This document shows, in pieces, positions 21,666-36,898 of a stretch of DNA of 43,605 bases. A program made the position numbers and the translations under genes. This stretch comes from a virus (lineage: Duplodnaviria; Heunggongvirae; Uroviricota; Caudoviricetes). The stretch is taken from positions 1 through 43,605 of IMG/VR virus record IMGVR_UViG_2579778674_000006; one strand, given 5' to 3'. Under the pieces are notes generated by a model. That model made no database searches and was not told the DNA's origin. It saw nothing but the letters and a program-made list of their open reading frames with translations. The number at the start of each line of letters is the position of its first letter. Within the stretch, counting starts at the first letter, position 1.

Positions 21666-21740
<75 letters not shown>

Positions 21741-21743
21741 CAT

Positions 21744-21820
<77 letters not shown>

Positions 21821-21821
21821 A

Positions 21822-21898
21822 CTGGACCGCCACCGGGGACTCGAACCTCGCACACTCAACTTAAAGGGTTGACGCTCTTTCCTGATGAACTGGTGACG
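21822..21898 (-). tRNA. tRNA-like gene, anticodon UUU if the loop is read canonically (Lys?), with unusual C33
   Basis: 77-nt cloverleaf, acceptor CCGTCAC/GTGGCGG with one G-U pair, anticodon loop CCUUUAA, T-loop TTCGAGT, CCA end; one T-stem mismatch. Confidence 0.5.
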
Positions 21899-21899
21899 G

Positions 21900-21975
21900 T
21901 TGGTGGCCCTTGCTGGATTTGAACCAGCGACCTGGCGATTATGAGTCGCTCGCTCTCACCACTGAGCTAAAGGGC
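21900..21975 (-). tRNA. tRNA with CAU anticodon (Met or lysidine Ile2, ileX-like)
   Basis: 76-nt cloverleaf, perfect acceptor GGCCCTT/AAGGGCC, anticodon loop CUCAUAA, T-loop TTCAAAT, CCA end. Confidence 0.8.
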
Positions 21976-22093
21976 CGGGCGCAGGATAATAACGTTACGA
22001 AATCAATGTTGCAAGCATTCAAAAATCACCTGGTTAAAAATCACCCTTAGCTCCTCCACCAGCGCATTCACCATGTCTATCCGAGATAAGTGG

Positions 22094-25334: not shown

Positions 25335-25490
25335 TTACTCCTCAGGTTCGTAAGCTGTGAAGACAGTGACCTCCGTCTGGCCGGTTCGGATTCGTACCTC
25401 GCAGAGGTCTTTCCTCGTTACCAGTGCCGTCACAATGACGGTTAAACAGATGACGATCAGGGCGATTAACATCGCCTTTTGCTGCTTCAT
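25335..25490 (-). CDS. hok: Hok/Gef-family type I toxin; the in-frame upstream ORF to 25547 is a possible mok-like leader frame
   Basis: 51-aa product MKQQKAMLIALIVICLTVIVTALVTRKDLCEVRIRTGQTEVTVFTAYEPEE, near-identical to HokD/RelF as I recall it. Confidence 0.85.
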   Translation of the reverse strand: MKQQKAMLIALIVICLTVIVTALVTRKDLCEVRIRTGQTEVTVFTAYEPEE

Positions 25491-25743
25491 AGCCTGCTTC
25501 TCCTTGCCTTTCGGCACGTAAGAGGCTAACCTAGATTTGCCGTTCATAGATTGAGCCTCAGATTAATGTTAAGCGTCTTGCAGGACGCGTAATGTTAACT
25601 GGGGCTTTTCTCTATCTGCCTTTGGTGTTCATGCCTGAGGCAGATAGCCTCAAGCACCCGCAGCAATTCTACTTAAGTTAGATAAGCTTTTCTATGGTAT
25701 TCTCTCAGCGTCCCGTAAATACAGTCTCGGCTCATCATTTTTA

Positions 25744-28913: not shown

Positions 28914-29339
28914 TCAATGTACTGCCACAGCATTTCCTGCCGGGCCACCACGGTTCATCTGATTGAAACCGGCGATTGCCACTGCGACAAAATCATCAGC
29001 GTCTCTCACCAGTCGCTCCCGCGTCTCCACCAGTTCCCGAAAATAAGCTGAACTGTGGCTGCGCATTCTGGCCACCAGCAAAGGTGGCATTGCCTTTTCG
29101 ATCGCTGGTAACAACGCCTGAATTTTTTCAACTGCATCAGGGGTGTCTTTCTCTACCCAGCGGAAAATTTTCTGGGTATTGCGAGCCAGGGCTTCCGGAT
29201 GGCTGTCGTCATACAGTTCTGGGAACGTCATACCCAGTTCAAAATAAGCCCTGGTTATTTCAGCTGCCGGAACTTTTTCACCGTCCGGATGCGCCCAGGC
29301 ATTCATCGCCATGCGGATGTGTTCATGCTTGATTTTCAT
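28914..29339 (-). CDS. YdaT-like protein (CII position)
   Basis: 141-aa ORF starting MKIKHEHI, which matches the start of Rac YdaT as I recall it; second gene of the rightward early operon. Confidence 0.55.
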   Translation of the reverse strand: MKIKHEHIRMAMNAWAHPDGEKVPAAEITRAYFELGMTFPELYDDSHPEALARNTQKIFRWVEKDTPDAVEKIQALLPAIEKAMPPLLVARMRSHSSAYFRELVETRERLVRDADDFVAVAIAGFNQMNRGGPAGNAVAVH

Positions 29340-29604
29340 GAATCAAGCTCCTAGAAAGTGGTTGTGTTAACGTTTTGGTATCTTCCAGCTCGGGCCAAAT
29401 ATTCATCCAATCAAAAGGCCTTAGTTGCTGACGTGTAACTTCACCATTACTGGCTCGCTCAATAAGGACACATAACGATGCCCCTAACACTTGACCTTTA
29501 CTCAATGCCTTTCTTAGATAACCGATGCTGGTACCACACTCGCATGCAAACATACGCTGTTCATCTGACGAAAGAGAATTGAGAAATATTCTTAATTCTT
29601 CCAT
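29323..29604 (-). CDS. Cro-like HTH regulator (YdaS-like)
   Basis: 93-aa ORF divergent from the repressor; HTH-like segment QRMFACECGTSIGYLRKALSKGQ. Confidence 0.6.
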   Translation of the reverse strand: MEELRIFLNSLSSDEQRMFACECGTSIGYLRKALSKGQVLGASLCVLIERASNGEVTRQQLRPFDWMNIWPELEDTKTLTQPLSRSLIHENQA

Positions 29605-29632: not shown

Positions 29633-29709
29633 ATACCCGCAGGTAAACAAAAGTCAATACCCACAGGTTGTTTACCTTGCGGTGATCGCATCTATTATTT
29701 ACCTATGGA
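29633..29709. promoter_or_regulatory. Candidate operator region between repressor and cro-like gene
   Basis: tacccgcaggta (29633-29644), tacccacaggtt (29657-29668) and tacctatggac (29698-29709, overlapping the repressor ATG); also inverted ggtaaacaa / ttgtttacc. Confidence 0.5.
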
Positions 29710-30124
29710 CAAATATGAATTTAGACGACAGCAACTCATCAAAATTCGTGATGAGAAATGCGATGGTAAAGCGGTTAACGTGGCCAGAAAGATCGGGCGC
29801 GAGCCTTCTTATGTATCAAGAATGTTGTACCCAGAGGGGAAAAAGGGAAAAAAACGGATCGCTGATGATATGGTGGAGATTATCGAAGAGTCCTTTGGGT
29901 TACCCCGGGGATGGATGGATGGTATCGTTTCATCATCAACGAACACAGCCTCCAGTTATGAAACAAGGGTTCTAACGCCACGACAACGTATTTTTTTAGA
30001 TCTCTTAGACGAACTGCCAGAAAGTGAAGCGGATAACTTATTAAAAACTCTTGAAGAGAAAAAACAGTATTACAATATGATCTACGAAGAAATCCGTAAA
30101 AAGAAAGCACAAAACGCATCATAG
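29705..30124 (+). CDS. Prophage repressor (RacR-like)
   Basis: 139-aa ORF divergent from the cro-like gene; N-terminal HTH-like region (VARKIGREPSYVSRML). Confidence 0.65.
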   Translation: MDKYEFRRQQLIKIRDEKCDGKAVNVARKIGREPSYVSRMLYPEGKKGKKRIADDMVEIIEESFGLPRGWMDGIVSSSTNTASSYETRVLTPRQRIFLDLLDELPESEADNLLKTLEEKKQYYNMIYEEIRKKKAQNAS

Positions 30125-30166: not shown

Positions 30167-30203
30167 TACCCATGGGTATTTACTTTTTAAATACCTATGG
30201 GTA
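30167..30203. promoter_or_regulatory. Candidate operator pair upstream of the leftward early operon
   Basis: Perfect palindrome tacccatgggta (30167-30178) and near-palindrome tacctatgggta (30192-30203), centres 25 bp apart. Confidence 0.5.
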
Positions 30204-30674: not shown

Positions 30675-30704
30675 ATAAGCGAAGTAGCACCGCGAGGAAT
30701 CAGT

Positions 30705-30923
30705 ATGCAGAAACGAGAACCCGTCATAATCGCGCCAGACTATACCGATGATGAACTTTATGAGTGGATGCGCCAGAAAATTAATGCAGCGCAGGATCTG
30801 AAATGGGCTAATGAAGCCAGGGCTAAGCAGGCTGAAAATCTGTCCGCTCTGGAGCAGGATATCACCAATCTGGAAAAAGCAGCGGCATTAAGCATTGCCA
30901 GAATGATTACATACCCGCGTTAA
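30705..30923 (+). CDS. Small early protein
   Basis: 72-aa ORF with RBS GAGGAA. Confidence 0.5.
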   Translation: MQKREPVIIAPDYTDDELYEWMRQKINAAQDLKWANEARAKQAENLSALEQDITNLEKAAALSIARMITYPR

Positions 30924-30924
30924 T

Positions 30925-31490
30925 AGCTAACCAACGAAGCTAAGGTTGGTAATTAAGGAGTTCTCCACGGGTGAGGTGGAGTGCGTGCGCCGGACACGGG
31001 TGAGCATCCGGCACTGACAGTTTACTGAAAGGATATTTCCCTGAAAAGTCAGACCATAACGCGAAAGCGCACGGCGAGGTAGCTGGTTCATAGATAGCCT
31101 GTCGTTAAATTTTCGTCGACCGTGCGCTTCCGGTTGTGGCACTCCGCGAAATGGCGCGGCGGTAAGTATGGCGGGGTTATTCCTTCCCCGTTGAGGACAC
31201 CGGGTTGTCAGGTTGACCATACGCTTAAGTGACAACCCCGCTGCAACGCCCTCTGTTATCAATTTTCTGGTGACGTTTGGCGGTATCAGTTTTACTCCGT
31301 GACTGCTCTGCCGCCCTTTTTAAAGTGAATTTTGTGATGCGGTGAATGCGGCTAAGCGCACGCGGAACAGTTAAAACCAAAAACAGTGTTATGGGTGGAT
31401 TCTCTGTATCCGGCGTTAATTGTTAACTGGTTAACGTCACCTGGAGGCACCAGGCACCGCATCACAAAACTCATTGTTGAGGGCGCGATA
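30925..31490. other. ORF-free, GC-rich, self-complementary segment: candidate structured RNA or regulatory region
   Basis: No credible ORF on either strand; several mutually complementary segments (gccgga/tccggc, cgtgcgc/gcgcacg, ggagtgc/gcactcc, ggttgtca/tgacaacc). Confidence 0.4.
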
Positions 31491-31679
31491 ATGAAAACGT
31501 TATTACCAAACGTTAATACGTCTGAAGGTTGTTTTGAAATTGGTGTCACTATCAGTAATCCTGTATTTACTGAAGATGCCATTAACAAAAGAAAACACGA
31601 ACGGGAGTTATTAAATAAAGTATGCATTGTTTCAATGCTGGCCCGTTTACGTCTGATGCCAAAAGGATGTGCACAATGA
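31491..31679 (+). CDS. Small early protein (62 aa)
   Basis: Start inside ORF 31386..31679 at MKTLLPNVNTSEGCFEIG...; its stop overlaps the next start (ATGA). Confidence 0.55.
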   Translation: MKTLLPNVNTSEGCFEIGVTISNPVFTEDAINKRKHERELLNKVCIVSMLARLRLMPKGCAQ

Positions 31680-31867
31680 ATCCAGTATTTGCACTTATTC
31701 TGACGGTTTTTCTTGTTTCCGGAGAGCCAGTTGATATTGCAGTCAGTGTTCACAGAACAAAGCAGGAATGTATGGCAGCAGCAACCGAACAGAAAATTCC
31801 AGGCAACTGTTATCCGGTCGATAAAGTTATTCACCAGGATAATAACGAAATCCCGGCAGGATTTTAA
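31676..31867 (+). CDS. Small early protein (63 aa) with N-terminal hydrophobic segment
   Basis: Start inside ORF 31622..31867 at MNPVFALILTVFLVSGEPV...; translationally coupled to the upstream gene. Confidence 0.55.
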   Translation: MNPVFALILTVFLVSGEPVDIAVSVHRTKQECMAAATEQKIPGNCYPVDKVIHQDNNEIPAGF

Positions 31868-31960: not shown

Positions 31961-34402
31961 ATGAGCACTGATAAAGAAGAATTTGCACTATATTGCGAAG
32001 CAAAAAATGACAAAGTAAGAAAACGCCTGGGAATTAAAGGTGGTTTTTACTGGACTACAGCAAAAAAATTATCTGTTGCAATCTCCCGCTGCATTACCGC
32101 AATGGATGACAACGATTATGATGAAGACGACTTTAAAAAACCCGTCCGCGTCAATTTGCCCGTTGTTGACGACCTTCCGCCAGAAGGCGTGTTTGATACT
32201 GAATTCTGCAACCGCTATGAAAAAGGCGGGAAAGATGGCATCACAATGACATTTATCGGCCCTTCCCCCTCTGTTCAGGACAAACCAGCCAGCACTGACA
32301 ATACCAACATCAACGGCGAAGACATGACTGAGATTGAGGAGAGCATGCTTCTGCCTGTCTCCGGTCAGGAACTGCCCATTCGTTGGCTTGCTCAACACGG
32401 CAGCGAAAAACCAGTAACGCACGTTTCACGCGACGAACTCCAGGCATTACACATTGCACGGGCTGAAGAACTACCGGCTGTTACTGCCCTGGCTATTTCG
32501 CATAAAACCAGTCTGCTCGACTCGCTGGAGATTCGCGACCTCCACAAACTGGTTCGTGACACTGACAAAGTTTTCCCTAATCCTGGTAATTCAGACCTGG
32601 GACTAATAACTGCTTTTTTCGAAGCATACCTGGACGCTGACTACACTGATCGGGGTCTGCTGACAAAAGAGTGGATGAAAGGAAATCGTGTTTCACGCAT
32701 CACCCGCACGGCTTCCGGTGCTAATGCTGGCGGTGGGAACAAAACCGATCGCAATCCGAATTTAGTACACACCCTCGACACACTGGATGTGGAGATTGCA
32801 GCAGCCACACTTCCGATGGATTTTAATATTTATGAAATTCCGGGCAGCGTTTATCGTCGCGCAAAAGAAGTAGTCCTGAACAAAGAAAGTCCGTTCAAAG
32901 AATGGTCCGCAGCACTTCGTGCAACCCCGGGTATTCTGGACTATTCCCGCGCCGCTATTTTTGCACTTATCCGAAGCGCACACCCTGAATTTTATCACTA
33001 CCCGGGACGCCTTCAGGGGTATATCAACGCCTATTTGACGGAAACTGATCACGAGAACCCCAGCAAGGAAACTCTCACAGCTGCCCGGCATACGCCGGAA
33101 AAAGATATCCTGGAAGAAATTAACCGCGAGGTGGTTACTGAGCGTGAAACAGAAGAAGAAAAACCACAACCATCTGACGCAATGGCAGGTGAACAGGCAA
33201 CAACTGAAACAATGGAACCGGATACAACTGAACATGGCCAGAACGCGCAGTCGCTGGATGCTCAGTCGCAGGTGAGTTCCGCTAACCAAGTAAAAGTCAC
33301 CGCTGACGAAGTAAACAAAATTATGCAGGCAGCCAATATCAGCCAGCCTGACGCCGATAAGTTACTTGCTGTATCGCGTGGTGAATTTGTTGAGGGGATT
33401 AGCGACCCTAATGATCCGAAATGGGTCAAGGGGATCCAGACTCGCGATTCTGTGAACCAGAACCAGCATGAATCGGAACGGAACGACCAAAAAGCGGAAC
33501 AAAACAGCCCAAATGCGTTACAAAACGAGCCAGAAACGAAACAATCCGAACCAGTAGCGCAACAGGAACCGGAAAAAGTCTGCACCGCCTGCGGTCAGAG
33601 CGGTGGCGGCAACTGCCCTGATTGTGGCGCGGTGATGGGCGACGCAACATACCAGGAAACATTCGATGAAGAGAATCAGGTTGAAGTTCAGGAAAATGAT
33701 CCGGAGGAAATGGAAGGCGCTGAACATCCACACAAGGAGAACCCTGGCGGCAATCAGCATCACGCCAGCGATAATAAAACTGGCGAGACGGCAGATCACT
33801 CAATTAAGGTGAACGGTCATCACGAAATCACATCCACCAGCAGGACGTGTGACCATCTAATGATCGACCTTGAAACCATGGGAAAAAATCCTGATGCCCC
33901 GATCATCTCAATAGGTGCAATATTTTTCGATCCGCAAACCGGAGATATGGGACCGGAATTTAGTAAGACTATCGATCTGGAAACTGCTGGCGGAGTCATT
34001 GATCGGGACACCATTAAATGGTGGCTTAAGCAATCACGCGAAGCGCAATCTGCCATTATGACCGATGAAATCCCGTTAGATGATGCACTGTTACAATTGC
34101 GGGAATTTATCGACGAAAACTCCGGTGAATTTTTTGTTCAGGTCTGGGGAAATGGAGCCAACTTCGACAACACGATTTTGCGCCGTTCATACGAACGGCA
34201 GGGGATCCCCTGCCCGTGGCGTTACTACAACGATCGCGATGTACGCACAATCGTTGAGCTGGGGAAAGCCATAGACTTCGATGCCAGAACGGCTATTCCA
34301 TTCGAAGGTGAGCGCCATAATGCACTTGATGACGCTCGTTACCAGGCAAAATACGTTTCAGCTATCTGGCAAAAACTGATCCCGAATCAGGCTGATTTTT
34401 AA
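31961..34402 (+). CDS. RecE-like exonuclease fusion with C-terminal DnaQ-like (DEDDh) 3'-5' exonuclease domain
   Basis: 813-aa ORF; N-terminal region resembles the Rac RecE N-terminus as I recall it; acidic linker; zinc-ribbon-like CTACG...CPDCG; C-terminus carries [12 protein letters not shown] and HNALDDARY motifs. Confidence 0.75.
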
Positions 34403-35741: not shown

Positions 35742-35831
35742 TGGCGGAGAGAGGGGGATTTGAACCCCCGGTGGAGTTGCCCCCACTCCGGTTTTCGAGA
35801 CCGGTCCGTTCAGCCGCTCCGGCATCTCTCC
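35742..35831 (-). tRNA. serU: tRNA-Ser (anticodon CGA), serU-like; prophage attachment site at its 3' end
   Basis: 90-nt class II tRNA GGAGAGATGCCGGAGCGGCTGAACGGACCGGTCTCGAAAACCGG...GGGGGTTCAAATCCCCCTCTCTCCGCCA. Confidence 0.9.
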
Positions 35832-36822: not shown

Positions 36823-36898
36823 TCCTCTGTAGTTCAGTCGGTAGAACGGCGGACTGTTAATCCGTATGTCACTGGTTCGAGTCCAGTCAGAGGAGCCA
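36823..36898 (+). tRNA. asnT: tRNA-Asn (anticodon GUU)
   Basis: 76 nt TCCTCTGTAGTTCAGTCGGTAGAACGGCGGACTGTTAATCCGTATGTCACTGGTTCGAGTCCAGTCAGAGGAGCCA. Confidence 0.95.

Follow-up and report, generated by a model that had tools for sequence, protein, structure and literature searches.

The ydfC–dicB intergenic region

The window analysed here is the whole 43,605-nt stretch of the Caudoviricetes record IMGVR_UViG_2579778674_000006. Its early region encodes YdfA-like (Pfam DUF1391), YdfB-like, YdfC, DicB and YdfD-like (Pfam DUF1482) proteins and an exonuclease VIII-like protein of 813 aa, with a divergent repressor/Cro-like gene pair upstream of ydfC, dicF and dicB. The ydfC stop codon at 30923 and the dicB start at 31491 delimit a gap of 567 nt (30924-31490), and the placement of an ORF-free segment of ~560 bp at 30925-31490 by an earlier, sequence-only reading of the same DNA was essentially exact. 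The dicB gene is preceded by a Shine-Dalgarno sequence, GAGG, at 31479-31482. The features of the region are as follows.

30705..30923, + strand: ydfC, the upstream flanking ORF, 72 aa; RefSeq gives 'ydfC: protein YdfC' under the E. coli matches, and the K-12 layout is the same
30924..31043, + strand: segment of the spacer that is linked to ydfC; local hairpins occur at 30930-30950, 30989-31012 and 31014-31052
31054..31139, + strand: long irregular hairpin of ~22 bp (fold z -3.41) that holds a gcgcacg/cgtgcgc pair; putative RNase III substrate
31134..31246, + strand: four-way-junction domain of ~113 nt, from RNAalifold and pair counts; with DicF, the body of the 190-nt species
31264..31316, + strand: DicF sRNA, 53 nt by the K-12 annotation (Rfam model at 31265-31316)
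31279..31321, + strand: Rho-independent terminator of DicF, a hairpin at 31279-31315 followed by UUUUU at 31317-31321
31324..31475, + strand: dicF-dicB spacer domain, STnc100-like, closed by a 20-bp helix (31324-31344/31455-31475); fold z -4.59
31491..31679, + strand: dicB, the downstream flanking gene, 62 aa; full-length match to Pfam PF05358 DicB (135.4 bits), also named in RefSeq

The whole window was scanned against Rfam at the gathering threshold. This covariance-model search, which the sequence-only reading had proposed as a check, identified DicF (RF00039) on the + strand at 31265-31316 with 76.7 bits (gathering score 48, E 2.5e-15), and the match spans the full model (positions 1-52 of 52). 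The sequence-only reading had been unable to match the segment to a known RNA family; it does match one. The suggestion of a regulatory or antisense RNA was right in kind, as DicF is a trans-acting antisense sRNA. The terminator hairpin is formed by the helices 31279-31285/31309-31315 and 31287-31291/31301-31305, in agreement with the Rfam consensus structure.

The 53 nucleotides at 31264-31316 are identical to dicF (b1574) of E. coli K-12 (NC_000913, 1649382-1649434). Across a stretch of 601 nt the window differs from the K-12 Qin prophage by 14 substitutions (97.7% identity), none of which is within dicF, and the order and spacing are those of Qin: ydfC, 340 nt, dicF, 174 nt, dicB. By Megablast the stretch is present in 60 phage records. 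Of 5426 complete E. coli genomes, 4730 have a match, with a median of 2 places and no more than 10 in any one genome. REP and ERIC elements are scattered through the intergenic regions of an E. coli genome in tens to hundreds of copies, and the copy number found here excludes a dispersed repeat of this type. Matches in phage records and E. coli genomes carry ydfC, dicB or DicF annotation, and phage Tritos annotates DicF at this position (misc_RNA, 'DicF antisense sRNA').

Based on the Rfam match, the synteny, the identity with K-12 and the absence of coding (see below), the gap is almost certainly the ydfC-dicB intercistronic region in the dicBF operon of a Qin/Kim-like lambdoid prophage, encoding DicF together with its processing structures. 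The element is therefore already known as the locus of DicF, an inhibitor of cell division first described in 1989-1990. The prophage in the window differs from Qin (Kim) in being larger and in carrying tRNA genes, a sok match and an uninterrupted ORF for the 813-aa exonuclease VIII-like protein; in Qin this position is taken by ydfE, a pseudogene interrupted by IS2.

Coding potential

The longest ORF in the gap encodes 111 aa from a TTG start on the - strand (30927-31262), and a second, of 36 aa with a GTG start, lies on the + strand. Some phage records (ON470583) annotate hypothetical proteins on the - strand here. It is nevertheless extremely improbable that standard annotation has overlooked a small protein or a type I toxin-antitoxin pair in the gap. 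Frameshifts and premature stops affect both ORFs across most of the distinct homologues: the 111-aa ORF is intact in only 17 of 48, and the 36-aa ORF is broken in 20 of the 48. The variable sites are evenly distributed over the codon positions (55, 63 and 55 at the three positions of the 111-aa ORF). We rejected both ORFs as coding on the grounds of the broken frames and the even spread of variable sites. In K-12, RefSeq places dicF as the only annotation between ydfC and dicB, with no CDS. Upstream of the dicB ATG, the dicB frame stays open for another 35 codons (GTG at 31386). The absence of credible ORFs noted earlier thus extends to the absence of any conserved reading frame among 48 distinct homologues; a conserved small coding frame in relatives, named in the sequence-only reading as an observation that would count against a structured RNA, was looked for and not found.

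A type I locus of the hok/sok kind has a conserved small toxin ORF overlapped by an antisense RNA. The gap contains no such ORF, and no sok-like or hok-like Rfam match occurs in 30700-31700, which argues against the type I antitoxin that had been offered as one option. The hok/sok-type locus of the window lies elsewhere: a full-length sok match (RF01794, 111.7 bits, gathering score 59) is found on the - strand at 25485-25659, and points to a type I toxin-antitoxin locus of this kind in the same prophage. A DicF region and a sok match also occur together in three other contigs (L009, L031 and L123).

Other features of the window

Several further features of the prophage were recorded. Six tRNA genes lie at 21667-21976 (-), 35742-35831 (-) and 36823-36898 (+), of which Rfam found five (Lys was missed). 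They comprise a tight cluster, Gly(tcc)-Thr(tgt)-Lys(ttt)-Met(cat), and Ser(cga) and Asn(gtt) genes beyond the exonuclease VIII-like gene; these last two might mark the prophage end or attachment site. The 813-aa protein (31961-34402, +) has an N-terminal Exonuc_VIII region and a C-terminal Rv2179c-like 3'-5' exoribonuclease domain (228 bits), and is annotated as exodeoxyribonuclease VIII in related phages.

The gene in the dicA/cI position (29705-30124, +) encodes 139 aa with no Pfam match at E <= 0.01. Phage Tritos is otherwise near-identical, but its repressor shares only ~39% identity with this gene product. A divergent 93-aa gene (29323-29604, -) has a sub-threshold match to YdaS_toxin (HTH-like). 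The immunity module thus differs, in contrast to the conserved dicBF operon. Between the gene in the repressor position and the ydfA-like gene (30309) there is a near-perfect inverted repeat on the + strand (30167-30203) with 16-nt arms, TACCCATGGGTATTTA and TAAATACCTATGGGTA. It is terminator-like by a simple scan, and could equally be an operator of the early-left promoter.

Folding of the gap

The RNA of the + strand folds with a minimum free energy (MFE) of -225.3 kcal/mol compared with -185.8 +/- 7.3 kcal/mol for dinucleotide shuffles (z -5.38), and none of 100 shuffles folds as well. The - strand gives a z of -5.80, and 12 other 568-nt segments of the same sequence give -2.65 to +0.73. 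As shuffles and control segments both fold less well, the self-complementarity is real and local, and its description as high is borne out on both strands. The gap had also been called GC-rich. At 51.4% its GC content is about five points above that of the flanking genes (45.5-47.2%), but it equals the average of the whole window (50.6%).

All eight complementary words on which the idea of interlocking folds was based are present in the gap, at the following positions.

GCCGGA at 30989; partner TCCGGC at 31007 and 31409
CGTGCGC at 30984 and 31121; partner GCGCACG at 31067 and 31356
GGAGTGC at 30978; partner GCACTCC at 31139
GGTTGTCA at 31203; partner TGACAACC at 31230

The proposal of alternative folds stands in part. 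The junction described below and the hairpin upstream of it are mutually exclusive at helix P1, but several long-range pairings seen in the single sequence are not conserved. Two long-range helices of the MFE structure, 30976-30984/31139-31147 and 30960-30975/31183-31198, were rejected because they are not conserved and show no covariation. The first of these contains the ggagtgc/gcactcc pair, which is allele-specific: it occurs in 14 of 48 homologues and is absent from K-12, where it has two mismatches. Two of the 14 spacer substitutions relative to K-12 create it. Occlusion of the dicB Shine-Dalgarno sequence by the pairing 31247-31253/31479-31485 was likewise rejected, as the pairing is allele-specific, the majority allele is mismatched and the 5' partner lies inside a variable cassette.

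No RNA family matches the first part of the spacer (30924..31043). BLAST matches in other prophages begin at query position 121-145 (~31044-31068 in the window); this first part therefore travels with ydfC and is present only in ydfC-type alleles.

A four-way-junction domain upstream of DicF

RNAalifold applied to 57 distinct sequences yields a four-way junction immediately upstream of the DicF sequence. The domain consists of four helices on the + strand.

31134-31140/31240-31246: P1
31144-31148/31155-31159: P2, CCGCG-AAAUGG-CGCGG, invariant
31160-31163/31199-31202: P3, CGGU/ACCG, closing the variable hairpin A (31170-31176/31186-31192)
31204-31213/31223-31236: P4 (hairpin B)

The stem of hairpin A is kept with different sequences (GGCGGGG/CCCCGUU, CUGGGGC/GCUCCAG, CGAGG/CCUCG and CUGGG/CCCAG), and the adjoining GGUAAGUAUGG is invariant together with P2. 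In the alignment of the 57 distinct sequences (A3), 98.5% of the positions compared are paired and 5 of 28 pairs have changed on both sides, a value reached by 0 of 500 shuffles; slid controls are 31-54% paired. A second alignment (A4) of 66 distinct rows, which includes metagenomic matches, is 98.4% paired. Here 10 of 28 pairs have changed on both sides (shuffles, 3.2 +/- 1.0; slid controls, no more than 3), although A4 is model-fitted, which biases its counts toward the structure. The alignment of homologues, another check that had been suggested at the outset, thus shows compensatory changes in the junction helices. The domain has no match in Rfam 15 at E <= 1. A tRNA-like reading of its cloverleaf shape was rejected, as ARAGORN and the Rfam tRNA model report nothing there.

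Folded by itself, the module adopts the four-way junction as its MFE structure (-46.5 kcal/mol). The 190-nt RNA, folded as a single sequence, has another MFE structure (-69.4 kcal/mol, with a z of only -1.77), and the junction plus terminator in this RNA (-66.0 kcal/mol) lies 3.4 kcal/mol above it, so thermodynamics alone cannot choose between the two. The 5' strand of P1 (31134-31140) doubles as the 3' base of the upstream long hairpin. Because this strand is shared, the junction would form only after the upstream RNase III hairpin is cut or opened.

The STnc100-like spacer between dicF and dicB

The spacer that follows the DicF terminator matches STnc100 (RF02076) at 31328-31468 with 38.8 bits against a gathering score of 47 (E 1e-6 in a 1-kb search). 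The alignment is partial (model positions 21-154 of 206) and includes the closing helix and the CCUGGAGGCACCAGG hairpin. The spacer is thus a sub-threshold relative of STnc100 and not a curated member of the family. Among 78 homologues, the two common polymorphisms of the 20-bp helix are exchanges of C and U opposite G, and all four combinations occur.

STnc100 is a prophage-encoded sRNA related to PasD (bioRxiv 10.64898/2026.05.13.724894). STnc100/PasD is a free-standing sRNA gene, whereas the element here is an internal operon spacer and the leader of dicB. An STnc100-like element, also below the gathering score (33-40 bits), occurs immediately upstream of tciA (TerB-like) in P1 (contig L012, 4342-4461) and D6 (contig L014, 2501-2621). 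With the element before dicB here and before tciA in P1-like phages, the same leader-type RNA precedes different small genes.

Transcription and processing

Transcription of the K-12 operon starts at dicBp, upstream of ydfA; no internal promoter was found, and the transcripts include one of 1146 nt that ends at dicF and one of 1608 nt that reads through to ydfD (PMC10448788). Formation of a 190-nt DicF species depends on RNase III, and that of the 53-nt species on RNase E (PMC10448788). The 53-nt RNA ends at a Rho-independent terminator, the role described for the dicF hairpin in K-12, and cleavage of the full-length mRNA by RNase III gives a 72-nt form (PMC5069750, PMC9438474). DicF binds Hfq and represses ftsZ, xylR, pykA and manX (PMC5069750, PMC9438474). 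Our promoter scan found no sigma-70-like promoter on the + strand inside the gap, in agreement with PMC10448788.

The RNA species and nucleases of the following scheme come from the K-12 literature, while the assignment of helices to cleavage sites and the part played by the junction are our own proposal. Given the 97.7% identity with K-12, the early-left polycistronic mRNA would start at a repressor-controlled promoter upstream of ydfA. RNase III would cut the ~22-bp hairpin at 31054-31139, setting the 5' end of the ~190-nt species, which would consist of the four-way-junction domain (31134-31246) followed by DicF. Cleavage by RNase E ~18 nt downstream of the junction would release the 53-nt DicF (31264-31316), whose 3' end would be made by the intrinsic terminator (31279-31321). 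In transcripts that read through toward dicB, RNase III would cut the 20-bp helix of the spacer domain (31324-31475) and yield the 72-nt form. The mature RNA probably acts as an Hfq-dependent antisense sRNA on the same four mRNAs as in K-12.

Counted back from the terminator end (31316-31321), 190 nt leads to 31127-31132, on the 3' arm of the long hairpin. Similarly, 72 nt from the 5' end of DicF leads to ~31335, on the 5' arm of the helix 31324-31344/31455-31475. Both are of the right size, and we infer that they are probably the sites of the two RNase III cuts, an assignment based on fragment lengths, with which the '813/814' numbering of PMC10448788 disagrees. All arms of the two helices are near-invariant in homologues (48 for the hairpin), and both are too conserved to reveal true compensatory changes.

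DicF is listed in reviews as the first intra-operonic or 3'UTR-type processed sRNA (PMC9438474). Like SroC, MicL and CpxQ, which are of this kind, it arises through RNase E cleavage of a longer mRNA and has its 3' end at an internal intrinsic terminator. Unlike them, it also makes use of RNase III, which acts at two sites, and is preceded by a large structured domain that is conserved.

The junction domain in other phages

By BLAST, the block at ~31133-31255 of the window occurs alone in phage cdtI, Stx2c phages, Ayreon and 2H10. The same block is found at 78% identity in the ban leader of phage P1, where the record carries the label 'dicF-like region' (NC_005856, 68791-68892). The covariance model of the junction domain matches this region with 91.3 bits (E 8e-25), and an intrinsic terminator follows the junction as it does here. 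However, the P1 phage element contains no DicF by Rfam, junction helix P1 is not preserved in the model alignment, and there is no RNase III hairpin upstream. The element is promoter-proximal and directly follows the C1-controlled ban promoters.

A pattern scan of viral contigs identified 82 distinct versions of the domain (21 clusters at 95% identity). A scan of genome contigs with the DicF core pattern found only 8 loci and added little diversity. All 82 versions have the same order: the conserved block, then a single-stranded stretch and an intrinsic terminator, both of them variable. The lambdoid versions, that is, those that are not of the P1 or cdtI type, continue after the terminator with the conserved STnc100-like sequence. 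Only one of the other cassette types tested attains the DicF gathering score; it is not reached by the cassettes of contigs L016, L031, L042, L056, L085, L091, L111 and L123 or by those of cdtI and P1. The DicF slot holds at least five other cassettes, each a seed plus terminator, below that score (the L016-L123 types, L013 and L012). The variation of the cassette behind a constant junction looks like allelic sRNA replacement. The flanking genes also vary, as ydfB and ydfC may be present or absent and dicB may give way to other small genes, but the block always occupies the same place in the early-left operon.

Other small RNAs were found near some of these loci. Two related contigs (L017, 5046-5234; L091, 1171-1359) carry an isrK RNA together with a C4 antisense RNA of the P1/P7 immI type, both 250-400 nt downstream of the DicF slot and within its operon, and cdtI has an isrK and C4 antisense pair elsewhere in its locus.

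Possible roles of the junction domain

The junction is the body of the stable 190-nt species, with RNase III predicted to cut ~2 nt before it and RNase E ~18 nt after it. For this reason we favor a role as a constant processing and stabilizing platform for the sRNA cassette that follows. Tentatively, and with less than even confidence, we propose that it constitutes a separate cis-acting RNA element, present as a constant 5' portion in prophage sRNA precursors whose cassettes are swapped, and that it is active in RNase E/III maturation or in terminator read-through. DicF would then be one allele of the cassette, and the element itself would be shared with the ban leader of phage P1.

Two other explanations of the conservation were considered. 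The junction might be a cis-acting transcription element, similar to put or to a riboswitch aptamer, that modifies RNA polymerase or senses a signal and so sets the read-through of the DicF terminator into dicB and beyond. In every allele it stands immediately upstream of an intrinsic terminator even though the terminator and the preceding stretch differ; in phage P1 it starts ~30 nt past the mapped ban promoters, and in cdtI it lies ~350 nt beyond cI, at the place expected for a PL leader element. The invariant P2 and its adjoining sequence suggest sequence-specific recognition. A general Pfam scan of the neighboring ORFs (the gene in the repressor position, the ydfA-, ydfB-, ydfC-, dicB- and ydfD-like genes and the 813-aa gene) gave no match to an antitermination family, as would suit an RNA-based mechanism of the put kind, although the scan was not specific for N. 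The put sites of phage HK022 occur as two copies, one downstream of each early promoter. The window has a single copy of the module, with no putL/putR pair, and ~1 kb separates the junction from the operon start. No anti-terminator pairing is conserved, as the linker to the terminator varies, and we found no published report linking DicF to antitermination. The put fold consists of two stems with a triplex (PMC9378689), from which the four-way junction differs. BLAST of the gap against the HK022 genome gives nothing beyond random matches of 11-26 nt, and the covariance model of the module has no match there. With no match in the whole of HK022 and no second copy in the 43.6-kb window, we rejected a put-like antiterminator by homology. 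What the two share is an analogy of low probability: a structured RNA in a lambdoid early operon, upstream of terminators and with no identified N-type protein. Taken as a whole, a role of this type is unlikely. A boxA-like GUGCUCUC or GUGCGCUUCC followed by the P2 hairpin is visible by eye, but the motif match is weak and the Pfam scan of neighbors, which did not specifically seek N-like proteins, contains no antitermination family; the N/nut reading was set aside.

It is less likely still that the conservation stems mainly from use of the region as a linker for homologous recombination between mosaic lambdoid modules, with the structures other than DicF having no RNA function. The non-coding stretch does remain >90% identical while flanking genes vary, and BLAST matches break at discrete query positions (21/45, 121/145 and 210). 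However, compensatory changes preserve the pairing of the junction helices, and the common polymorphisms of the 20-bp helix also preserve pairing. Additionally, RNAs of 190 nt and 72 nt that contain these parts accumulate in vivo in K-12, and the downstream part is related to a recognized sRNA family, STnc100. Nothing points to the recombination or packaging site that had been suggested for the gap.

The practical value of these results is correct annotation. In RefSeq rows and many phage records DicF is unannotated under the match, or dubious 'hypothetical proteins' are placed on the - strand. If the junction is an active processing or read-through element, this would account for a mosaic operon being best conserved in its non-coding stretch. 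Prophages would, moreover, exchange sRNA 'cassettes' in modular fashion behind a constant RNA platform.
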